Assembly (NCBI GenBank): GCA_964413015.1
Contig: CAYPQZ010000008.1
Span: 37,387 to 101,386, forward strand
Source: an uncultured Candidatus Saccharibacteria bacterium
GTDB taxonomy: Bacteria; Patescibacteriota; Minisyncoccia; Portnoybacterales; UBA2143
Length of the DNA stretch: 64,000 nucleotides
Direction: 5' to 3'
Made by a program: the position numbers and the translations under genes. The notes under the pieces were generated by a model. It did not search any database. It saw only the letters and a program-made list of their open reading frames with translations, and had not been told where the DNA came from. The first letter of the stretch is position 1. The number at the start of each line of letters is the position of its first letter. Positions 4,858 through 48,704 of the stretch are shown here, one piece after another.

Positions 4858-6204
4858 ATGAACATCAAAGAGCTCTGGCGAACAGTTTTAGGGGAAATTG
4901 AATTGAATATTTCTAAGGCCAACTTTATTACTTGGTTTAAAAGCACCAAGATTCATTCAAAAAAAGATGGGCTGGTTACAGTCAGTACGCCGAATGGGTT
5001 TACCAAAGAATGGCTGGAGAATAAATACAATAAGCTCATTTTAAAAATTCTCCGTAATAACTCTTTGGATGTTAAAGATGTTAAGTTTATCATTGACGGG
5101 ACGTTCGTTCCAGAAGCTAAAAAAAAGCCAACCCCAGCTTTATCTGATAATCAACTTAACTTACGCGAATGCGCTCTTGATGGAGAAACGAACCTTAATC
5201 AGAAATATAATTTCAATAATTTTATCGTTGGCTCTTTTAATGAATTAGCCCAGGCAGCCAGCCGGGCAGTTGTTAAGCATTTAGGCACGCTTTACAATCC
5301 CTTATTTATTTACGGAGGGGTTGGCTTAGGCAAAACTCATCTTCTTCAGGCAATTGGCAATGAGTTAAACCAAAATCATCCATCTAAAAAGATTAAATAT
5401 CTCAGTTCTGAAAAATTCACCAGTGAATTGATTGATGCTATTTCCAAAAAGGGTATGGACGTCTTTAAAAAAAAATACCATAAAACAGATACGCTAATTA
5501 TTGACGATATTCAGTTTATTGCCGGGAAAGAAAAGACGCAGGAAGAATTTTTTAACGTTTTCAATGCGCTTTATCAGAAAAATAAGCAAATTATTATTAG
5601 CTCGGATCGTCAGCCTAAGGCGATTTCAACTTTGGAGGAGCGTCTGCGTTCCCGTTTCGAAGGAGGCATGATTGCTGATATCAGCTGTCCTGATTTGGAA
5701 AGCAGAATTGCCATTTTGCGGAATAAAGCTAAAGAGAAAAATATTAAGATTGGCGATGATGTCCTGAATTATATCGCCGCCAATATCCAGAAGAATATTC
5801 GAGAATTGGAAGGGGGCCTTAACAGGATAATTGCTTTTACTCAGATACATGGGGTTGATCCGGATATTAAAACAGTCTCTAAAATATTGTCTCAGATAAT
5901 TAATGCCCCTAAGAAAATGACCAATTTAAAAACGATTATTAAGGTCGTTTCCGATTTTTATGACGTTAATAGCAGTGATTTGATAAATCATTCTCGAAAA
6001 AAAGAATTGGTTAAACCGCGACAGGTGAGCATGTATTTAATTCGAAAAGAATTAAACGGCTCCTATCCTTTTATTGGTGAAAAATTGGGCGGCCGTGACC
6101 ATACCACGGTAATCTACGCTTTCCGTAAGATAGATAGAGAGGTCCAGAATAGCGAATCTTTCCAACATGAAATAAATTTGATAAAAGAACGGTTGTATAA
6201 TTAG
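4858..6204 (+). CDS. dnaA: Chromosomal replication initiator protein DnaA
   Basis: 448 aa with an AAA+ Walker A (GGVGLGKTHLLQAIGN), sensor motifs and a C-terminal DNA-binding helix (VKPRQVSMYLIRKEL). It is divergent from rpmH and followed by dnaN. Confidence 0.95.
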   Translation: MNIKELWRTVLGEIELNISKANFITWFKSTKIHSKKDGLVTVSTPNGFTKEWLENKYNKLILKILRNNSLDVKDVKFIIDGTFVPEAKKKPTPALSDNQLNLRECALDGETNLNQKYNFNNFIVGSFNELAQAASRAVVKHLGTLYNPLFIYGGVGLGKTHLLQAIGNELNQNHPSKKIKYLSSEKFTSELIDAISKKGMDVFKKKYHKTDTLIIDDIQFIAGKEKTQEEFFNVFNALYQKNKQIIISSDRQPKAISTLEERLRSRFEGGMIADISCPDLESRIAILRNKAKEKNIKIGDDVLNYIAANIQKNIRELEGGLNRIIAFTQIHGVDPDIKTVSKILSQIINAPKKMTNLKTIIKVVSDFYDVNSSDLINHSRKKELVKPRQVSMYLIRKELNGSYPFIGEKLGGRDHTTVIYAFRKIDREVQNSESFQHEINLIKERLYN

Positions 6205-6293: not shown

Positions 6294-7430
6294 ATGCAAA
6301 TAATTTGCCTGCAGGAAAATTTAAAATACGCTTTAAACATTGTTGAGCGGATTATCGGCAGGAATTTAACTTTGCCAATACTTAATAACCTTCTTCTGTC
6401 AGCCGAAAAGAATAAATTGAAAATATCTTCAACCAATTTGGAAATAGGCATCAATTGCTGGGTGTCGAGTAAGGTTCAAGCTAAAGGAAGTATTACGGTG
6501 CCGGCCAGATTAATCAGCGAGTTTGTTAATAACTTGCCTAATAAAAAGATTGAGTTGAAAACTAAAGACGGGAACTTGGAGATAAAATGCGAAAAATTCA
6601 AAGCGGTCTTCAAGGGTCTGCCGGCTGATGATTTCCCACTTATCCCCAAAATTAAAAACGATCCTTTGATAAAAATCCAAGGCAATCATTTAAGAAACGC
6701 TTTCTCTCAAGTGGTAGAAATGTCTTCTATGTCCGAATCAAGGCCTGAAATTTCCGGTATTTTTATGAAATTTGAGGATGGCTCAATTAGGCTGGCGGCC
6801 ACCGACAGTTTCCGGCTGGCCGAGAAGACTCTTCGCCTCGACCCAAATTCATTGAGCAAAGTTTCTAAAGAGCAATCTTTAATTATCCCTCAAAGAACTA
6901 TCCAGGAATTAATCAGGATTCTTTCAGAAAAAGACGGCTTGGCTGACAAACAAGAAACAGAAGCGGAAATAGTTTTATCAGGTGGCCAGGCACTGTTTGA
7001 TTTAGGTCAGACTCAGGTTATTTCCAGATTAATTGACGGCCAATATCCGGACTATCAGCAGATTATCCCTGACAAAACTCAAATACAGGTAGTGGTTAAT
7101 CGTCAGGAAATTATTAATAATATTAAAATAGCCAGTTTATTCAGCGGAAAAATTAATGACGTCAAGATTTCTATAAACCCCGAGAAGTCATTAATAGAAA
7201 TTTCTTCAAAAGATATTGATATTGGGGAGCATAAATCCCAGATTAAAACGAAAATTGAAGGCAAGGCGAAAGTCGAAATTATCTTCAATTACCGATATCT
7301 TCTAGATGGGCTCAATAACATCTTAAGCGACAAGGTTGTTTTAGGATTAAACGACAGTGCCAGTCCGGTAACCGTCAGGCCGGTTGGCGATACCAGCTAT
7401 ATCTATCTCGTCATGCCAATTAAGGTTTAG
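6294..7430 (+). CDS. dnaN: DNA polymerase III beta sliding clamp
   Basis: 378 aa with three-domain clamp architecture, starting MQIICLQENLKYALNIVERII. It is immediately downstream of dnaA. Confidence 0.9.
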   Translation: MQIICLQENLKYALNIVERIIGRNLTLPILNNLLLSAEKNKLKISSTNLEIGINCWVSSKVQAKGSITVPARLISEFVNNLPNKKIELKTKDGNLEIKCEKFKAVFKGLPADDFPLIPKIKNDPLIKIQGNHLRNAFSQVVEMSSMSESRPEISGIFMKFEDGSIRLAATDSFRLAEKTLRLDPNSLSKVSKEQSLIIPQRTIQELIRILSEKDGLADKQETEAEIVLSGGQALFDLGQTQVISRLIDGQYPDYQQIIPDKTQIQVVVNRQEIINNIKIASLFSGKINDVKISINPEKSLIEISSKDIDIGEHKSQIKTKIEGKAKVEIIFNYRYLLDGLNNILSDKVVLGLNDSASPVTVRPVGDTSYIYLVMPIKV

Positions 7431-8039: not shown

Positions 8040-10568
8040 TTATTGATAATGGATAGTTATTTCATCCTCTTGTCGATTAAGGACTTGGTCGTAGGCACGG
8101 ACTTTAATAGTTTGCCTATCCGAATCTATCAAATAAGGGGATGCGCTGATGGTAATTGAATACGGTTGGGTAGTATCGGTGCCAACCAAATTGTCATTAA
8201 AGAAGAAATCCACCTGTTTGATGCCTAATTTGGCCTGGGCCGAGGCCTGGATAAATAAGGTAGGTTCAGATATTGAGCTATTCTTCTTGGGAAGTTTAAT
8301 TTCTACCTCCGGTTGGTTCTCTAAAATATGGATGTCGTCGTATTGACTGATGATATTCCGGTTGTAACAAGTTTGTCCGTTACATGGCTGGGATCTTGCC
8401 CATTCTAAAACAGAGGTTTCCCAATTCTGGAATTGAGAATCTTCGGCCGGATTTTCAGGATAGTCGCCTAAAGGATCTGTTTTGTCTACATAATAGAGAA
8501 TAGAATGAGCTTCCTGGTAAATCTTTTCTTCAATTAAGTCAGGAGGAGTTAAATCGGTTGCTAATTTGCCGGAAATTTTGTCAATTTCAATTTTATTTTG
8601 GAAAGCAATTTGTCCATTAAGCATGGGTTTTTCAATTTTTTCGCTTATTTCGGGCGGAGTGAAGTATTCTGTCTTTCCCGGTAGTAAAAATGGGGATAGT
8701 TCTTCAAAATAAGTGGCTGTTCCCATTTCTGATTTTTTCGCTTCATAGGCCTTAAGCATAAAGTCGTTCCAGATGGGCGCTGCTACATAAAGGCCGGCTG
8801 CGCCCAGCCGCATTTTGTCTTTAAAATCATTGTTGCCGGCCCAAACTCCGGCTACCAAACTTGGCGTATATCCGATAGTCCAGCCGTCGCTGTAATCTTG
8901 AGTGGTCCCGGTTTTGGCAGCCGCCGGAATGCCCGGCAGGTAGAGTTTTGAATAAGAGCCCATCATGGGTGCCCGGGCCGATTCGTCGGAAAGGATATTA
9001 CTGATTTGACGAGCTACCTGTTGGCTGAGAACGCGTGTTTCTTTGTCTTTGCGCTCTTCCAGAATATTACCTTGGGCGTCTTCTATTTTAATGATTAAAT
9101 TTGTCGGATGCTTAATTCCCTCATTGGCGAAAATTCCGTAAGCGGCAGTTTCATCTAAAAGCTTGATCTCGCCGCCGCCTAAAACTAAAGATAGATTGTA
9201 TCGGCCGCGGTCCTTAAGAGTAGTAATCCCCATATCTTGAGCTAAGTCAATTGTTTCCTGAATACCGGCCAAATAAAGAGTTTTAACTGAAGTTAGGTTA
9301 ACTGATTGCGCCAAAGACTGCCTCATGGTGATCGGGCCGCGAAATTTTAAGTCATAGTTATTCGGCGAATAATCCTTGCCGTTTCCGGGGCCGAATTTAC
9401 CGAAGCTAGTTTGCAAGTCAAACAAAATAGTTTCAGGAGTGTATCCTTTTTCAAAAGCAACTGCGTAAGCAAACGGCTTGAAAGAAGAACCGGGCTGGCG
9501 ATAGGGGCTGGTAGCTACATTGAATTGGTCTTCTTCATATCTTTTTGAACCTACCAAAGCCAGCACTTGGCCAGTTTTAGGGTCAATAGCCACTAAGGCG
9601 GCATTAGTCGCCCGATAATTTTCTTTGTTTTTTTCAACTCCCTCGGCAACAGCCTGTTCGGCAATTTCCTGTAATTCCCAGTCTAAGGTGGTATATACTT
9701 TTAACCCGGCCATATTAATGTCGGTATAAGTTCGGCTGTACTTTTCTTCCAAATATTCCTTAATCATAGCGATAAAATGGTGCGCTTTGAGGTCGGATTG
9801 AGAGGCGTATTCTAATTTTTCCTCTTTAGCTTGTTCAAGCTGTTCTTGGTTGATGTAATTAAATTCAGCCATGCGTTCTAAAACGCGTTGCTGTCGTTCT
9901 TCGAGCTCTTTCGGATGAGATCCGTAAGGAGAATAGTAGCTGGGCGCCTGAGGAAGAGCGGCTAAAAGGGCTGATTCGGCCAGGGTTAATTCGGGAACTG
10001 ATTTTTCAAAAAAGGTCTGGCTGGCTGCCTCAATCCCATAGGCGTTTGAACCGTAAGGTACCTGATTAAGATAAAACTCGAGAATTTCGTCTTTGGAATA
10101 TTTTCTTTCCATTAAGAGAGCTAAAATAGCTTCCTTAATTTTTCGGGTAAAGGTTCTTTCTGAATTAGGGCCTCCTAAATAGGCATTTTTAATAAATTGT
10201 TGAGTTATAGTGGATCCGCCTTGGGAAATTTCTTTGCCGGTCAAGTTTGACCAAGCGGCTCTTAGAATACCTCGCCAGTCCAGACCGAGATGATGGTAAA
10301 AATTGTCGTCTTCAATAACTATGGTGGCATCTTTGACGAATTTGGGAATTTTTTCAAAATCAATCACGGTTCTTTTCTCTTCGTCGTGAATGTCATAAAG
10401 AATAATTTTTCCGGTCCGGTCGTAAATTTTGGTTGATTCAACTATTTGACGCTGGCTGATTTTGCTTGGGTCAGGCAAATCTTTGGCAAAATAGGCAACT
10501 AGACCAATTATTGAAATAATTGCGACGACAAAGATAAAAAGCGCAAATTTTAACAATTTCTTCAACAT
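8040..10568 (-). CDS. Class A penicillin-binding protein (PBP1A: glycosyltransferase GT51 + transpeptidase) with C-terminal Ig-like extension
   Basis: 842 aa with an N-terminal TM anchor, GT51 motifs (IEDDNFYHHLGLDW, GGSTITQQFIKN), a transpeptidase SxxK region (SSFKPFAYA) and KTGT (AAAKTGTT). Confidence 0.85.
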   Translation of the reverse strand: MLKKLLKFALFIFVVAIISIIGLVAYFAKDLPDPSKISQRQIVESTKIYDRTGKIILYDIHDEEKRTVIDFEKIPKFVKDATIVIEDDNFYHHLGLDWRGILRAAWSNLTGKEISQGGSTITQQFIKNAYLGGPNSERTFTRKIKEAILALLMERKYSKDEILEFYLNQVPYGSNAYGIEAASQTFFEKSVPELTLAESALLAALPQAPSYYSPYGSHPKELEERQQRVLERMAEFNYINQEQLEQAKEEKLEYASQSDLKAHHFIAMIKEYLEEKYSRTYTDINMAGLKVYTTLDWELQEIAEQAVAEGVEKNKENYRATNAALVAIDPKTGQVLALVGSKRYEEDQFNVATSPYRQPGSSFKPFAYAVAFEKGYTPETILFDLQTSFGKFGPGNGKDYSPNNYDLKFRGPITMRQSLAQSVNLTSVKTLYLAGIQETIDLAQDMGITTLKDRGRYNLSLVLGGGEIKLLDETAAYGIFANEGIKHPTNLIIKIEDAQGNILEERKDKETRVLSQQVARQISNILSDESARAPMMGSYSKLYLPGIPAAAKTGTTQDYSDGWTIGYTPSLVAGVWAGNNDFKDKMRLGAAGLYVAAPIWNDFMLKAYEAKKSEMGTATYFEELSPFLLPGKTEYFTPPEISEKIEKPMLNGQIAFQNKIEIDKISGKLATDLTPPDLIEEKIYQEAHSILYYVDKTDPLGDYPENPAEDSQFQNWETSVLEWARSQPCNGQTCYNRNIISQYDDIHILENQPEVEIKLPKKNSSISEPTLFIQASAQAKLGIKQVDFFFNDNLVGTDTTQPYSITISASPYLIDSDRQTIKVRAYDQVLNRQEDEITIHYQ

Positions 10569-10604: not shown

Positions 10605-10865
10605 TTATTCTATTTTGCCAGAATTGACCTGCTTTGGCAAGCCTGTTAATCCGGGAACAGTTCCCAAAACTTTGGGGAATGCTCCATTATTACAAATAGC
10701 CGTCAAAGACGGCCTGATTATTCAAGTAGGTACACGTAAGTTTGTCCGGGATGCCCCTAACGACTGTTTCAACCCTTTTTTAAGCTTATCTCAGAATCAA
10801 ATATTGCTATCCATAATTCAGAAAATTTTTAGGGTTAAACTCTTGATTATTAAAATTTGGAATCA

Positions 10866-12380
10866 TTATCCCTTAGCCAAAAGGTGGGGGTTAAATACTT
10901 TTTTTAATTTTAGAAGTTTAACTGGTTTTAAATCGAGGGCTTGATGCATGGCTATGGCTATCTGTTTTGCCCAAGGATTTAATTCTCTGCCTGAATCGTC
11001 TAAAACCCTTTCTAGGGTTAAAACCCGTCCCAAACGACGATTGGGGCTAAAAGGCGAATTTTTAATTTGGATACCGTCGGTTAAAACAAATTCCTTTTTG
11101 TCTTTAAGATGTTTTAAATCATAGCCCGGCCTTAGATACTCAAGCCGGTCTTTTTTTAACTTGAAGACGCCGGCTTTAATTTGTTTATGGTTTCTTGTCC
11201 AGCGGTTGGTCAGATTATGAGGAATTATCTGGGCACCGATCTTGTTATTCTGACGCATTAGAGAATTAACTTGTCCTACATCAATTTGGCAATCAATGTT
11301 AAGGAATTCTAAAATATGGAAGCCGATAATTAATGGTTCGTTGTTTAAGGATTGGACCATATTGATTGTCGGAAAAGAGCCAAGCAGGCGGGAATTACAT
11401 TCAATCACGTAAAGCTTTTTACTTTTTTCATCCAGAACAAAATCAATGCCGAAAATTCCCCGATAACCCATTTTTTTGAAATACCGGCCGATTTTTTCAA
11501 CTGACTGATAGGCCTGCCGGTTAATTTCTTCAGTGAATCTTGAACTGGTCCAGTCGTGGCCGCAGAACAAGCCAGAACCCCTTTCGGAGTTATAGAGTTC
11601 GGGCGCGTCAATAACTTGGTATTGGAGATTGGTCGAAAGAACGCCGTGCTTAGTGACGCATCCGGTGATACTTGGCGAGGGACCCCGAATGTATTGTACA
11701 ACAATGGCTTCAGTAACCATTTCGTATTTTACCTCTTCTTCGTTTTCGGACTCTCCTTTTGGTTTCCATTTGCCTTCCAATTTCTTAACGGCTTTATCAA
11801 AGTCATCTCGGCTATTAATGAAAAAAGTTCCTTTACCTCCGCCTTTAGTCGGGTGTTGAACAACAAAAGGCAGGCCGTGTTTTTCTAACGAATGTTCGTA
11901 ATTGAGCTTATCAACCGGAACAATTCCTCCTGGAGGAACGGCTAATTTGATTTGTTCTGAAATTCTCCTGAAATTCACTTTGTTCTCAAACATTTTCTTG
12001 CCAAAGGAAGTTGAGTTGGCTATTAATCTCCAACCGTTTTCTTGGCAGATTTTTTCCATTTTGCTTGAGGCCTTAAGGACAATGATTGCCGGATTTTCAA
12101 ATTTATCCAGATATTTCTTTGTTAGAGGGAGTTTTAAAACAGTGGTTGCGTTGCGCGGCTCGCGAATGTGCTTGGTGCCCATGCCTTTTTCCAGTGAAAA
12201 GGTTTCAATTTCTTCCTCGATTATTTGACTGTCTAAGGTGTAGCGAAGGCAAAGGATTCTGTAGTTATCAATAATTTTTTCCGGTCCCAGCCGGTCAAAA
12301 GCGTAAACTCCGGCTCCAAAAATCGGAGTTTTAACTTGCTTGAAGAATTCCTTCTGGGTTTTAAGGTCTCTGATAATCAT
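10866..12380 (-). CDS. ATP-grasp family ligase (pre-ATP-grasp + ATP-grasp + about 100-aa C-terminal extension)
   Basis: 504 aa. The central-domain P-loop-like region (HPTKGGGKGTFFINSRDDF) and C-domain (GIFGIDFVLDEKSKKLYVIECNSRLLGSFP) are typical of ATP-grasp amidoligases. The start overlaps the upstream gene stop by 4 nt (ATGA coupling). Confidence 0.6.
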   Translation of the reverse strand: MIIRDLKTQKEFFKQVKTPIFGAGVYAFDRLGPEKIIDNYRILCLRYTLDSQIIEEEIETFSLEKGMGTKHIREPRNATTVLKLPLTKKYLDKFENPAIIVLKASSKMEKICQENGWRLIANSTSFGKKMFENKVNFRRISEQIKLAVPPGGIVPVDKLNYEHSLEKHGLPFVVQHPTKGGGKGTFFINSRDDFDKAVKKLEGKWKPKGESENEEEVKYEMVTEAIVVQYIRGPSPSITGCVTKHGVLSTNLQYQVIDAPELYNSERGSGLFCGHDWTSSRFTEEINRQAYQSVEKIGRYFKKMGYRGIFGIDFVLDEKSKKLYVIECNSRLLGSFPTINMVQSLNNEPLIIGFHILEFLNIDCQIDVGQVNSLMRQNNKIGAQIIPHNLTNRWTRNHKQIKAGVFKLKKDRLEYLRPGYDLKHLKDKKEFVLTDGIQIKNSPFSPNRRLGRVLTLERVLDDSGRELNPWAKQIAIAMHQALDLKPVKLLKLKKVFNPHLLAKG

Positions 12381-13702
12381 GGTTTGGGTTTGTTTCTCAT
12401 AAAGACATTTTTAGCTGGATCAACTAAAAACCTTTTTAAATCCTTGCGGCCGACAATAATGTCGTATTTCATCTCTGTCCGGTCGGCTATAAAGGCCTCG
12501 GTATTGACTAAACGTTTATCTAGAAAAAAGGAAAGATTAATAATTGGCCTTTCTTCTGCGCCTAAGACGCCCTTTACCTTTTTAAAGCCAATCGGATTAT
12601 CGATTTCTAATTCTTTAGCTAAGCTGGAACAAATGGTAGTTCGGTAGGCGCCGGTATCAATCTTGGCCATAGTTAAATTTTTGTTTTTCTCGCTGTCCAA
12701 AATTTCAATGGTTTCGTTTATTCCGATGACCTTACGTCCAGACATTCCCTCTAGCCCTTCTTCTATTTCACCGCCGAAAAGACTCTGGGCTATCTGGGTT
12801 CCTTTAGTAATGGTTTTTATCTTAAGACCCTTGATCCTTTGGAGTCGGTCGTTTAAGGAAGCCAGATTAGCAATTTGGATGGATAATCCTGGCCGGGAAT
12901 TAAGCTCTAAAATAACCGGACCTTTTTCTCTGTCAATGGCAATGTCTATTCCCATATATCCTATTTTGGTAACCTGTTGAGCATGAACTGATAGACGTAA
13001 AACTTCTTTCCAGTCAGGGATCTGAATCCCTTTTAGCAGCAATCTGGTCCCGGGGGCGTATTCAATCAATTGGTCTCTCTGAATGGCAGTAGTGGTTACC
13101 CCGGTGCCTAAATCAATCCCGACACCAATTCCGCCCATATGAAGATTAGCCTTGCCTCCGGATTCTTTTGTTGGCAAACGCAGCTCGGCCATTACCGGGA
13201 CCGAGTTGTAAACGATAATTCTAATATCGGGTATGCCGCGATAAGTATATGGCTTTAGAAGCTTTAGTAGTTTGATTCTTTCTTCAAAAAAGGCTATATC
13301 AGGCAAGTCAGTTGGAGAAAAAGTTCCTTCCAAAATATTTGAAACATGGCTTTTTAAATCTTTGATTTCAACTAATTTCTTATCAGCTTTAACCCAGGGA
13401 TAGGGAAATTTCTTTTTTTTGCCGTAAACAATAAGGATTCCTTCGCCGCCTAATCCTTGATTAGGCTTGAGTACAAAAGTTGGCGGTAAATTAGTCCAGT
13501 CAAAAGATTTTAAATCCTTATTATTCTCAATAACTGAATAAGTTTGAGCAACCGGAAGCCCGTTTTTGTTTAATATTCTTTTAGCCAGTAATTTATTGCC
13601 GGCAATTCGAATAGCCCTCTGTGAATTAGAGGGCCGTAAGTAGGTTAGGCTGCGAGCATTTATCCCTAAGATACACTCACCCTTTTTTAGGTATTTCAAC
13701 AT
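12377..13702 (-). CDS. RimK-like ATP-grasp ligase fused to C-terminal retropepsin-like (putative ATP-dependent zinc protease, PF05618-type) domain
   Basis: 441 aa. The N-terminal two-thirds is RimK-like (GLPVAQTY, VLKPNQGLGGEGI, GYMGIDIAIDREKGPVILELNSRPG). The C-terminal ~110 aa (MAKIDTGAYRTTICSSLAKELEID...ADRTEMKYDIIVGRKDLKRFLVDP) matches the retropepsin-like family usually encoded next to rimK. Confidence 0.65.
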   Translation of the reverse strand: MLKYLKKGECILGINARSLTYLRPSNSQRAIRIAGNKLLAKRILNKNGLPVAQTYSVIENNKDLKSFDWTNLPPTFVLKPNQGLGGEGILIVYGKKKKFPYPWVKADKKLVEIKDLKSHVSNILEGTFSPTDLPDIAFFEERIKLLKLLKPYTYRGIPDIRIIVYNSVPVMAELRLPTKESGGKANLHMGGIGVGIDLGTGVTTTAIQRDQLIEYAPGTRLLLKGIQIPDWKEVLRLSVHAQQVTKIGYMGIDIAIDREKGPVILELNSRPGLSIQIANLASLNDRLQRIKGLKIKTITKGTQIAQSLFGGEIEEGLEGMSGRKVIGINETIEILDSEKNKNLTMAKIDTGAYRTTICSSLAKELEIDNPIGFKKVKGVLGAEERPIINLSFFLDKRLVNTEAFIADRTEMKYDIIVGRKDLKRFLVDPAKNVFMRNKPKP

Positions 13703-14339
13703 GTTTTATAACTTTACGGAAACGGAAATACTCTGAAAGCCTCAGGCCGGTCCACTTTCCTAAAAGTATGTTTACGGCGATACTTCCCAAGATGATACAT
13801 AAAGGATAGCTCAGGACTGCATTTTGCAGCCAAACCCAGCTGGCTATCCAGTAGCAAATTATTGAGATAATTAAGGTTTCTGAAGTTATGATAATTGTCC
13901 TTTTAGCTCCCTGTTTAATTTGAGCGGCAATAAATTTCTCGACCAGAGTTATCATAATTAAAACAGCGAAGACCGAAGCGGTAATAAAGCCGTGGCGATT
14001 AAAATAGGCTCCTTCTAAAAAGACAAAGAAGGTTGTTAAAGCGACTATAATTAAGATAATTGCCATTCGGGGAAGATAAAGCAGGCGGAATTTTTTAACC
14101 GATAGGCGCGCTAAGGTGCCGACTACTAGAATAGCGATAAATATCGCCAGGCCGTATTTTAAACCGGTAGCTAAAAAAGCGAAGGCGATAATTAAAGGAG
14201 TATAAATACCGAATCCTTTGATACCGATTACTTGTCGGGCAAAAGCGATTACCGTAGCAACGATTGGCAACATTAAAAGCAGGACAACGGTTTCCTGGGG
14301 GACTCCCTGATTAATCATGTATTGAGTAATTTGGGACAT
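13677..14339 (-). CDS. Seven-transmembrane membrane protein (7TM family associated with RimK-like ATP-grasp/transglutaminase systems)
   Basis: 220 aa with seven clear hydrophobic helices and short loops. It overlaps the downstream ATP-grasp gene by 26 nt (operon). Confidence 0.5.
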   Translation of the reverse strand: MSQITQYMINQGVPQETVVLLLMLPIVATVIAFARQVIGIKGFGIYTPLIIAFAFLATGLKYGLAIFIAILVVGTLARLSVKKFRLLYLPRMAIILIIVALTTFFVFLEGAYFNRHGFITASVFAVLIMITLVEKFIAAQIKQGAKRTIIITSETLIISIICYWIASWVWLQNAVLSYPLCIILGSIAVNILLGKWTGLRLSEYFRFRKVIKHVEIPKKG

Positions 14340-14430: not shown

Positions 14431-14901
14431 TTATTTTGTGCTGTGGGCGCAACAAATGGCGGTCGCTAAAGCGTCTGCTGCGTCATCTGGCTTGGGAATT
14501 TCTTTCAGATTAAGCAGCAACTTAACCATTTTTTGGACTTGTTTTTTTTCAGCCCGTCCATAACTAGTGACTGCCTGTTTAATCTGCAGGGGGGTATATT
14601 CGTCTATTAAAACCTTCATTTGTGACGCCCGGGAAAGGATGACTCCTCGTGCCTGGCTTACCTTAACAACTGTTTTAGCATTTTTAAAAAAGAAAATATC
14701 TTCAACAGCTACTTTATGCGGTTGGTACTCTTTAATTAAATCAGTTAGTTTTTGGTCTATCTGTTTAAGCCTTTCGGCGGTAGAAAATTTTGGCTCCGTT
14801 CTGATACAACCATAATCAATCATTGCCAAGTTGTCATTTTCTTTTTCAATGATCCCGTAGCCGGTTATAGCTGTGCCAGGGTCAATCCCCATAATTATCA
14901 T
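14431..14901 (-). CDS. ruvC: Crossover junction endodeoxyribonuclease RuvC
   Basis: 156 aa with an N-terminal IMGIDPGTAITGYGI and catalytic acidic residues (ADALATA near the C-terminus). It lies in the ruv/yebC neighbourhood. Confidence 0.9.
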   Translation of the reverse strand: MIIMGIDPGTAITGYGIIEKENDNLAMIDYGCIRTEPKFSTAERLKQIDQKLTDLIKEYQPHKVAVEDIFFFKNAKTVVKVSQARGVILSRASQMKVLIDEYTPLQIKQAVTSYGRAEKKQVQKMVKLLLNLKEIPKPDDAADALATAICCAHSTK

Positions 14902-14987: not shown

Positions 14988-15527
14988 TTACTTCAGATTG
15001 CTGTATATTTCCTGGATATCTTCGTTATCTTCCAAAGCCTCAAAAAGCTTTTCTGTTTGAGCTTTAATTTTAGAGTCGGCTATTTCCATTGGATATTTTG
15101 ATTTCCAGGAATCGTTCTGTTTATCAAAGAGGTATTTAACGCTTCCAGCTTCGGCCAGCTTGCCGCCGAATCGGCTTAAAATATGTTTTATTTCAGCCAA
15201 AGTCCGATTTTTGTTGTCAGTAATTCCTTCAATAATTAAAGCTGTCCCGTTTGGGCCGTAGGCCTCGTAAACGACTTCTTCTATATTAACTCCCTGAGCT
15301 TGCCCAGACCCGCGCTTAATCGCCCGTTCAATGTTATCTTTGGGCATATTGGCCTCTTTGGCCTTTTCGACAGCTAATTTCAGTTTGGGGTTTGTTTCTA
15401 AATCCGGCCCCTTTTCTTTCACGGCAACGCTAATTAAGCGGGACAATTTGCTGAAAATTTTGCCCCGCTTAGCATCCGCAGTTCCCTTTTTATGTTTTAT
15501 CGACGACCAGTGGGAATGTCCACTCAT
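14988..15527 (-). CDS. yebC: YebC/PmpR family DNA-binding transcriptional regulator
   Basis: 179 aa starting MSGHSHWSSIKHKKG, the YebC hallmark. It is upstream of ruvC as in many bacteria. Confidence 0.9.
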   Translation of the reverse strand: MSGHSHWSSIKHKKGTADAKRGKIFSKLSRLISVAVKEKGPDLETNPKLKLAVEKAKEANMPKDNIERAIKRGSGQAQGVNIEEVVYEAYGPNGTALIIEGITDNKNRTLAEIKHILSRFGGKLAEAGSVKYLFDKQNDSWKSKYPMEIADSKIKAQTEKLFEALEDNEDIQEIYSNLK

Positions 15528-15635
15528 ATATTTATACCTTAATGATACTATTGATTAAAAAGGAGTGTCAATGGATAGATGGAATAAAGGACAGTTTAAA
15601 AATTTAAGGACTGTCTTTTAATTAATCGCTTATTT

Positions 15636-27924: not shown

Positions 27925-27949
27925 AGTTTTTGATTATTGTGTAATTCCT

Positions 27950-28283
27950 TGGAGATGGCGGGAATCGAACCCGCGTCTAAAAGGCATTTCTTAATAATTC
28001 TACAAGCTTAGCTTGATTTGGATAAAATTAAAAACTTAAAACCAAGCAAAAAATTTTTAATTTTTGTTTCTAAGATTCAACAATCAGCTGAAACCTTCCG
28101 ATTGTTTATCCTGATAGGATAACACCCAAAGCTTTTCATCAGGAGTCAAAAGTTCGGATGGCTACTTATTTAAGCAGTAGCAAAAGCTAAATTTTCGTTA
28201 GCAATTATTAGTTTGCGAGATTAACGAGTTCGCGCTCGGCTTGCTTATTAAAAAAAGAACTTTTATCGATGCCTGGCATCCCC
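27950..28283 (-). ncRNA. ssrA: tmRNA (ssrA)
   Basis: Reverse strand: the 5' GGGGAUGCCAGGCAUCGA pairs with the 3' ...GACGCGGGUUCGAUUCCCGCCAUCUCCA (tRNA-like T-arm + acceptor). The internal tag frame GCU AAC GAA AAU UUA GCU UUU GCU ACU GCU UAA (ANENLAFATA*) parallels ANDENYALAA. It lies immediately downstream of smpB. Confidence 0.75.
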
Positions 28284-48620: not shown

Positions 48621-48704
48621 TGCCGGAGGCGGGAGTCGAACCCGCAAGGACCGAAGTCCACAGCATTTTGAGTGCTGCGTGTCTGCCAGTTCCACCACTC
48701 CGGC
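48621..48704 (-). tRNA. tRNA-Leu (anticodon CAA), type II with long variable arm; CCA not encoded
   Basis: Reverse strand GCCGGAGUGGUGGAACUGGCAGACACGCAGCACUCAAAAUGCUGUGGACUUCGGUCCUUGCGGGUUCGACUCCCGCCUCCGGCA. It has a 7-bp acceptor, a CAGCA/UGCUG anticodon stem with loop CUCAAAA, and a GCGGG/CCCGC T-stem. Confidence 0.85.

Follow-up and report, generated by a model that had tools for sequence, protein, structure and literature searches.

The rloABC operon of Pseudomonas aeruginosa encodes a secreted retropepsin (RloA), an inactive transglutaminase fused to a seven-transmembrane (7TM) module (RloB) and an ATP-grasp protein (RloC), and has been characterized by genetics, crystal structures and protease biochemistry that includes poly-glutamate cleavage (Lormand et al. 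2025, mBio, PMC12239564). RloA cuts runs of at least eight glutamates, and the defects caused by loss of all three rloA protease genes are suppressed when rloB or rloC is also deleted. This epistasis indicates that RloB and RloC make something that needs processing by periplasmic RloA, with phenotypes in cell shape and the response to β-lactams (PMC12239564). More broadly, Rlo in Pseudomonas influences how cells tolerate osmotic, notably hypo-osmotic, stress, form biofilms, keep their shape and respond to antibiotics, and 96% of the RloB matches in a survey were in Proteobacteria (PMC12239564). Here we describe a three-gene cassette from a Patescibacterium, located in a stretch of 64,000 nt (the window; contig CAYPQZ010000008.1 of assembly GCA_964413015.1, positions 37,387–101,386 of the forward strand), which encodes a 7TM protein (gene 1), a fusion of an ATP-grasp ligase and a retropepsin (gene 2) and an accessory ATP-grasp ligase (gene 3). 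Judged by sequence, genes 1 and 2 represent the rloABC system in a Patescibacterial form. We lean, though only slightly, towards reading the cassette as a membrane-docked complex of an RloC-type ligase and a retropepsin that builds and trims an acidic α-peptide, with accessory ligases varying the product.

The RimK–RimB pair provides a second point of comparison. RimB, an endopeptidase of the retropepsin type, acts on stretches of no fewer than six contiguous glutamates; it interacts physically with RimK and stimulates RimK-catalysed poly-α-glutamate synthesis fourfold (Little et al. 2025, JBC, PMC11957791). An active RimB–RimK hybrid (RimBK), in which the protease is N-terminal, is found mainly in Flavobacteriales and Rhodobacterales, and in Desulfotalea (PMC11957791). 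The initial annotation of the cassette had regarded the association of ligase, retropepsin and 7TM protein as a comparative-genomics prediction only, a view that the experiments on rloABC (PMC12239564) and on RimB/RimK (PMC11957791) have overtaken. Text searches of the literature found nothing relevant on the Patescibacterial system, which is widespread in that group and apparently undescribed there.

Genes of the cassette and their closest relatives

All three genes are on the minus strand (Table 1), with overlaps of 26 nt between genes 1 and 2 and 4 nt between genes 2 and 3, in exact agreement with the initial annotation. Homologues of the three proteins are numerous in Patescibacteria, at 53–91% identity, indicating that the genes are real and conserved. 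The close homologues are all from Patescibacteria (Parcubacteria, Portnoybacteria and similar), which supports the setting in a reduced genome of the candidate phyla radiation (CPR) that had been proposed.

Gene 1 matched PF14402 (7TM_transglut) above the gathering score (E = 4.3e-30, 105 bits against a cutoff of 25), as anticipated for a 220-residue protein with seven transmembrane (TM) helices. A hydropathy scan gave about seven TM peaks, and the positive-inside rule predicted an N-out/C-in topology with basic stretches in two loops (residues 82–91 and 138–147) and in the tail (residues 194–220, with eight K/R). For direct comparison we used the canonical rlo-type operon on the Legionella adelaidensis plasmid NZ_LR134414 (L028). 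Its 'inactive transglutaminase family protein' aligned with gene 1 over residues 309–505, that is, in the 7TM region only (29% identity, E = 8e-24), and the span matched in the RloB model NF052267 was likewise limited to model positions 311–507 of 508. The inactive-transglutaminase domain of RloB is therefore not present in the 220 residues of gene 1, which has merely ∼15 extracytoplasmic residues ahead of TM1, nor is there space for such a domain, because ruvC ends 91 nt upstream. On these matches, gene 1 is the C-terminal 7TM module of RloB, alone. Among 15 orthologues, down to 29% identity, its best-conserved element was the cytoplasmic tail LGKWTGLRxSEYxRF, which is invariant; the motifs R/KQxxGxxxFGxYxP, EKF and ET were also conserved.

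The N-terminal part of gene 2 is an ATP-grasp domain of the RloC type. Residues 17–291 matched PF14397 (E = 4.5e-66, 223 bits against a cutoff of 31), and the top NCBIfam match was TIGR02291, 'alpha-L-glutamate ligase-like protein' (268 bits), compared with only 53 bits (cutoff 143) for the RimK family TIGR00768. Identity to the RloC-like ligase of the Legionella operon was 40% (E = 1e-65), and the ATP-grasp residues K79, E140/E141, D253 and E266-x-N268 were invariant in 47 gene 2 homologues. Searches of the PDB with the sequences of the full-length proteins gave no close structure. For an AlphaFold2 model of gene 2 (pLDDT, the predicted local distance difference test score, of 72.8), Foldseek placed the ligase part nearest to ArgX, LysX and RimK, enzymes that add residues to the C-termini of peptides or proteins, followed by cyanophycin synthetase and Ddl. 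The N-terminus of the ligase is conserved as well (L12, G13, N15 and R17). Neither gene 2 nor gene 3 has a signal peptide or a TM segment, and gene 2 is free of hydrophobic segments of any kind.

The C-terminal domain of gene 2 scored just over the threshold of PF05618 (residues 373–433, 29.7 bits, cutoff 27). Used as a profile, the domain matched the RloA crystal structures 9G58 (4.8e-9) and 9G59 (8e-8), deposited with the Pseudomonas study (PMC12239564), as well as Ddi1 retropepsin domains (1e-6), and hhalign aligned it with the RloA-like protein of the Legionella operon at a probability of 91.8%. The initial description of gene 2 as a 441-residue RimK-related ATP-grasp protein with a C-terminal PF05618 retropepsin thus stands, both matches of hidden Markov models (HMMs) being above their cutoffs. 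The catalytic KIDTG motif was verified in the translation. Within the retropepsin domain, K347, D349, G351, R408, I416, G418 and R419 were invariant, and T350 and R385 were conserved in at least 90% of the 47 sequences; overall, the catalytic motifs of genes 2 and 3 were invariant in 47–49 homologues. In P. aeruginosa RloA, K46, R114 and R137 line the poly-glutamate-binding channel and D48 is catalytic (PMC12239564). The K46-x-D48 arrangement recurs as K347-x-D349 in gene 2, and R114/R137, which are 23 residues apart, match R385/R408, also 23 apart, with RP(I/V) and DR(S/T) as shared motifs. By motif and spacing, the poly-glutamate-binding positions of RloA therefore appear conserved in gene 2.

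Ligase and protease are joined by a Glu-rich linker in which F309, G310, G311, E314, E318 and G322 were invariant in 47 sequences. Its pLDDT was <50, and residues 311–326 were predicted to be disordered. The linker could serve as a pseudo-substrate, or it could be where processing occurs. Autocleavage at this position was considered and kept as a low-probability idea, given that the linker has no run of six to eight contiguous glutamates of the kind that RimB and RloA specificity needs.

Taken together, the cassette shares with Rlo the PF14402 7TM module, the TIGR02291/PF14397 ATP-grasp ligase and the PF05618 retropepsin, with its DTG motif and basic channel residues, linked in one operon. It differs in that gene 1 is without the ∼300-residue periplasmic inactive-transglutaminase domain of RloB, and in that the protease, which lacks a signal peptide, forms the C-terminal part of a fusion with a cytoplasmic ligase, whereas RloA is a separate secreted protein. 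The gene order is 7TM followed by ligase–protease, rather than protease–7TM–ligase; an extra, interchangeable ATP-grasp gene (gene 3) is present; and the host is a monoderm-type Patescibacterium and not a proteobacterium. With RimK–RimB and RimBK the cassette has in common a cytoplasmic ATP-grasp enzyme (a glutamate ligase in RimK) paired with or fused to a retropepsin (poly-glutamate-cleaving in RimB). However, the protease is N-terminal in RimBK and C-terminal in gene 2, the gene 2 ligase is of the RloC type and outside the RimK family, and RimBK has no 7TM partner. Cyanophycin synthetase and cyanophycinase also combine ATP-grasp-based, ribosome-independent synthesis of a poly-amino acid, by more than one ligase activity, with a dedicated peptidase. 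Yet the Mur-ligase-type domain of that system is absent here, the similarity is negligible, the peptidase fold differs and cyanophycin has no 7TM partner.

Gene 3 encodes a second ATP-grasp enzyme with a pre-ATP-grasp region, as the initial annotation had it. Its Pfam matches were to generic ATP-grasp families, and its AlphaFold2 model (pLDDT 90.9) comprises a pre-ATP-grasp domain, an ATP-grasp core and a β-rich C-terminal subdomain. The ATP-grasp motifs GGGKGTF (residues 180–186), D313 and E327-x-N329-x-R331 were invariant, as was a family-specific motif, CGHDW (residues 273–277). The protein aligned over its full length, C-terminal subdomain included, with NF005096/PRK06524 (model positions 21–472), albeit below threshold (142 bits against a cutoff of 684). 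The C-terminal 'extension' pointed out earlier is therefore real but not idiosyncratic, since it is common to the PRK06524 family. Distant homologues (∼25% identity) on Rhizobium symbiosis plasmids are labelled 'biotin carboxylase' by NCBI pipelines. The Rhizobium homologue likewise has a peptidase (C45) beside it, and its neighbours also include a peptide ABC transporter and a pyridoxal-phosphate-dependent aminotransferase. No genes for a biotin carboxyl carrier protein (BCCP) or a carboxyltransferase were found nearby in the window or beside the Rhizobium homologue. Given this lack of carboxylase partners and a score far under the PRK06524 cutoff, gene 3 is an orphan ATP-grasp ligase, a distant relative of PRK06524, and neither a carboxylase nor an enzyme of the Ddl or Mur kind. 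On the Rhizobium leguminosarum plasmid NZ_CP071402 (L029), a PRK06524-type 'biotin carboxylase', probably a mis-named peptide or amino-acid ligase, adjoins nifHD.

Distribution, domain fusions and the accessory slot

To place the cassette in a wider context, we searched 1.84 billion cluster representatives and sorted the best 150 of the 412 clusters found at E ≤ 1e-30 (50%-identity clusters) by architecture with purpose-built HMMs. The ligase–retropepsin fusion was present in 89 of these 150 nearest clusters, alone in 50 and extended by a MATCAP domain in 39; 11 clusters were ligase–MATCAP fusions, 46 had the ligase alone and four joined it to the 7TM module. The gene 2 fusion protein gave 4046 matches at E ≤ 1e-10, and its top 120 clusters were all ∼440–450 residues long and 63–91% identical to it. 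In many relatives the RloC-type ligase has a fused or neighbouring MATCAP, a member of the family (PF08014) of tyrosine carboxypeptidases that act on tubulin tails (examples in Table 1). This bacterial pairing resembles the eukaryotic pair of TTL and MATCAP, which act in a cycle on tubulin tails, and the MATCAP fusions in relatives echo that cycle.

We further compared 24 species-level genome loci (L001–L024) and two metagenome loci (L025, L026). The 7TM and ligase genes were adjacent in all 24 genome loci. In a Methanomassiliicoccales metagenome-assembled genome (L023) the 7TM module and the RloC-type ATP-grasp domain even form one 579-residue protein, and this archaeal fusion is evidence for physical coupling of the two and for a spread beyond bacteria. 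An extracytoplasmic N-terminal region of 300 residues belongs to the 7TM protein in Peregrinibacteria, Magasanikbacteria and some other Patescibacterial loci, and contains PKD domains in L021. Upstream of the cassette, 19 of the 24 genome loci and both metagenome loci have yebC and ruvC on the same strand, with the order yebC–ruvC–7TM–ligase in L001–L004, L006–L019 and L024–L026. The ruvC/yebC context noted initially is thus kept in this Patescibacterial group, but it was absent from the Peregrinibacteria, Magasanikbacteria and archaeal loci of the synteny survey.

The position after gene 2 proved to be variable. Only nine of the 24 genome loci have gene 3 there, as do both metagenome loci (L025, L026). 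In the closest locus of the genome collection (L001, 87% identity in gene 2), and likewise in L005, L008, L009 and L012, gene 3 is replaced in this slot by a pair of RimK-like ATP-grasp genes with translational coupling. A single RimK-like gene was found in L011, gene 3 with a RimK-like gene in L002 and L007, gene 3 with an M17 aminopeptidase gene in L024, and LAL-like ATP-grasp genes in L016 and L017, accompanied in L016 by a GNAT gene. Accessory ligase genes of all three types (gene 3, RimK-like, LAL-like) show translational coupling. In a neighbour-joining tree of the ligase domain the cassette types were interleaved, with the window sister to L001, so the accessory ligases behave as a swappable or differentially lost module. 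This in turn argues that the product is made by several ligases and varies between lineages. The initial suggestion of stepwise ligation gains strength from the related loci, which have one to three further ATP-grasp genes in the same slot; gene 3 itself is no fixed component, being present in nine of 24 loci and replaced by RimK-like genes in the closest relative.

Genomic surroundings of the cassette

The flanking genes, ruvC and yebC on one side and a class A penicillin-binding protein (PBP) gene on the other, were all located where the initial annotation had put them (Table 1). The window has a GC content of ∼38–40%, and the gap of 91 nt between ruvC and gene 1 is AT-rich. Both upstream genes are possibly co-transcribed with the cassette. 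A promoter-like site precedes yebC, and a terminator-like hairpin follows gene 3; the numbers of promoter-like sites and of hairpins in the region were not above the shuffled expectation, so that the yebC site is a positional suggestion only.

Table 1. Coordinates of the cassette, its domains and motifs, neighbouring features and comparison loci (window positions unless a locus is named)
Feature	Position	Strand	Basis or remark
Gene 1, 7TM protein, 220 aa	13677–14339	minus	ORF (open reading frame) list
Gene 2, ligase + retropepsin fusion, 441 aa	12377–13702	minus	ORF list
RloC-type (TIGR02291/PF14397) ATP-grasp amino-acid ligase domain, gene 2 residues 1–308	12779–13702	minus	HMM matches
Glu-rich linker FGGEIEEGLEGMSGRKVI (also FGGEIEEGLEGMSG), gene 2 residues 309–326	12725–12778	minus	translation verified
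Retropepsin-like (RimB/RloA-type) aspartic endopeptidase domain, gene 2 residues 327–441	12380–12724	minus	PF05618
Catalytic KIDTG motif of gene 2	12650–12664	minus	verified
Gene 3, accessory ATP-grasp ligase, 504 aa	10866–12380	minus	ORF list
ruvC	14431–14901	minus	upstream neighbour
yebC	14988–15527	minus	upstream neighbour
Promoter-like site TTGACA, 18-nt spacer, TATCAT	15542–15571	minus	11/12 matches, upstream of yebC
ComEA-like protein, 454 aa	15636–17000	minus	between ruvB and yebC
Terminator-like GC hairpin with T-rich tail	10698–10714	minus	∼150 nt downstream of gene 3
19-aa remnant of tyrS C-terminus	10693–10749	plus	tblastn with L001 TyrRS, residues 379–397, 79% identity, E = 4e-4
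Class A PBP gene	8040–10568		neighbour on gene 3 side
ORF, 186 aa	7478–8038	minus	downstream of PBP gene
dnaN (suggested)	6294–7430	plus	start sequence
dnaA (suggested)	4858–6204	plus	start sequence
tmRNA gene	27949–28283	minus	Rfam, 146 bits
tRNA gene	48621–48704	minus	Rfam
RimK-like gene pair	L001 5618–7275		264–316 aa and 286–291 aa across five loci
7TM–ligase fusion, 579 aa	L023 5266–7005		Methanomassiliicoccales
MATCAP–ligase example	L016 6001–8835
MATCAP–ligase example	L021 5992–8388
MATCAP–ligase example	L026 3404–4528
PRK06524-type 'biotin carboxylase' beside nifHD	L029 17004–19481		NZ_CP071402

The adjacency to the PBP gene had been taken as a hint at an envelope function. In relatives, however, the cassette and the PBP gene are kept apart by a convergent tyrS gene, in some cases along with other genes, and nine related loci keep a full tyrS at this position. 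In the window we found a 19-residue remnant of the tyrS C-terminus there. The adjacency was thus produced by deletion of tyrS and is no evidence of a functional link, which leaves the hint weak. No other tyrS gene is present in the 64 kb, so this essential gene has to lie outside them, unless the deletion is recent or stems from the assembly.

Several further features of the surroundings deserve mention. Their start sequences suggest that dnaA and dnaN lie just past the PBP gene, which suggests that the cassette is close to the chromosomal origin; in L026, dnaN and DciA occupy the same position. The ComEA-like protein encoded between ruvB and yebC combines helix-hairpin-helix, PKD and lamin-tail domains with a TM anchor at its C-terminus, and the position of its gene is kept in relatives. 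The 186-residue ORF downstream of the PBP gene had no Pfam match. The only Rfam matches at gathering level in the window were the tmRNA and tRNA genes.

Proposed mechanism and alternatives

In the mechanism towards which we lean, the basic amphipathic C-terminal tail of gene 1, on the cytoplasmic side, probably docks the ligase. The gene 2 ligase would extend the C-terminus of a peptide, most likely with glutamate or another acidic residue, by the acyl-phosphate mechanism of the RimK/LysX/ArgX group, and the fused retropepsin would cut this acidic peptide endoproteolytically, for which the domain would have to pair with that of a second subunit to make one active site. Synthesis and trimming or release may thereby be coupled on one product within a single membrane-tethered complex, as in the RimK–RimB complex. 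Gene 3 would presumably contribute another kind of residue, as primer, cap or branch, in which case a heteropeptide may result instead of pure poly-glutamate. By analogy with Pseudomonas, the physiological role could be in envelope or osmotic homeostasis.

A number of points weigh against this mechanism. The TIGR02291 score of gene 2 (268 bits) is under that model's trusted cutoff of 314, and its AlphaFold2 model is of medium confidence only. The glutamate specificity assumed for the RloC-type ligase is extrapolated from RimK and from the specificity of the protease. The Pseudomonas system has its protease, and a domain of its 7TM protein, in the periplasm, so the cytoplasmic arrangement in CPR bacteria may act differently. 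A search of the window ORFs for an acceptor protein with an acidic tail (acidic C-termini or D/E runs) found none. Finally, with synthesis and cleavage of the same product joined in one protein, a futile cycle is a risk if there is no regulation.

A more elaborate version of the proposal, which we consider unlikely, is a membrane-coupled, ribosome-independent assembly line for heteropeptides that is widespread in Patescibacteria. Here, a defined acidic peptide would be assembled next to the 7TM protein by the RloC-type ligase together with as many as three further, exchangeable ATP-grasp ligases, and the retropepsin, held in check or self-released via the Glu-rich linker in the manner of a retroviral polyprotein, would set its length. 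Lineage-specific modules (gene 3, RimK-like, LAL-like, MATCAP, M17) would diversify the product, again with a role in envelope or osmotic homeostasis.

One alternative is a storage polymer in the cytoplasm. As genes 2 and 3 have neither signal peptide nor TM segment, ligase and protease are both placed in the cytoplasm, as expected if the ligases made a cyanophycin-like cytoplasmic reserve from an amino acid imported or channelled by the 7TM protein, to be remobilized by the endopeptidase and, in relatives, by MATCAP and M17 enzymes. Such a storage polymer would suit an auxotrophic symbiont; related cassettes complete the degradative set with a MATCAP carboxypeptidase and, in L024, an M17 aminopeptidase, and a structure search with the gene 2 ligase domain found cyanophycin synthetase among its matches. 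However, nothing indicates that the 7TM protein is a transporter, the score against the cyanophycin synthetase model TIGR02068 was negligible (25 bits against a cutoff of 850, with no Mur-ligase-type (M) domain), and the Pseudomonas phenotypes point to the envelope and not to nitrogen storage (PMC12239564); we give this explanation a low probability. We rate just as low the idea that the ligase extends the C-terminus of a specific protein, such as ribosomal protein S6 or a membrane protein, and that the retropepsin removes the extension, which would form a reversible switch with the 7TM protein as sensor or regulator. This would follow the precedent of RimK/RimB, including the active RimBK hybrid (PMC11957791), and would agree with ArgX, LysX and RimK as the closest structures and with the fusion of a eukaryotic tubulin-tail carboxypeptidase family, MATCAP, in many relatives. 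On the other hand, the ligase belongs with TIGR02291 and not with RimK, there is no acidic-tailed candidate acceptor in the window, the C-terminus of the 7TM protein is ruled out as a general acceptor because it is fused to the ligase in archaea, and multiple accessory ligases suit the assembly of a peptide better than a simple tail.

A third alternative is export of the product, as has been proposed for Pseudomonas RloB and RloC: the 7TM protein would translocate the ligase-made peptide to the surface or wall, with the protease acting on its length or release before export. The epistasis with periplasmic RloA (PMC12239564) argues for such a route, as do the 300-residue extracytoplasmic regions of the 7TM proteins in Peregrinibacteria, Magasanikbacteria and some other Patescibacterial loci, with their PKD domains in L021. 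The short extracytoplasmic N-terminus of gene 1 speaks against it, no translocase-like motif is known in the 7TM protein, and the neighbouring PBP gene is not a conserved operon link, all of which makes export improbable for the cassette in the window. Ordinary metabolism, with the ATP-grasp genes encoding Ddl, a Mur-type step or biotin carboxylase next to an unrelated transporter, is essentially refuted. It could draw on weak partial matches to Ddl (E ∼1e-5) and biotin carboxylase models and on the 'biotin carboxylase' label of distant gene 3 homologues, but the scores are far under the curated cutoffs: 14–24 bits against ∼245 for Ddl models (243 for the 24-bit model), with partial matches only, 29 against 626 for accC, and the sub-threshold PRK06524 score of gene 3 given above. 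No Mur-ligase domain was detected in the ligases, the carboxylase partners are missing from both neighbourhoods, and the membrane protein belongs specifically to PF14402 and occurs linked with the ligase at 24 of 24 loci. The HMM scores thus decide against both outcomes that the initial annotation had named as contrary to it, namely a lack of ATP-grasp or PF05618 matches and ligases of the Ddl or MurC–F kind.

The Patescibacterial version amounts to Rlo pared down to the bare 7TM module and one soluble ligase–protease polypeptide, in a cassette that is strongly conserved in very small genomes. Its pared-down form would make it a simpler object for reconstituting the ligase product and the coupling of ligase and protease in vitro. 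The natural fusions, 7TM–ligase in archaea and ligase–retropepsin–MATCAP in many clusters, provide direct hypotheses of interaction, and the distribution described here extends Rlo-type systems well past Proteobacteria.

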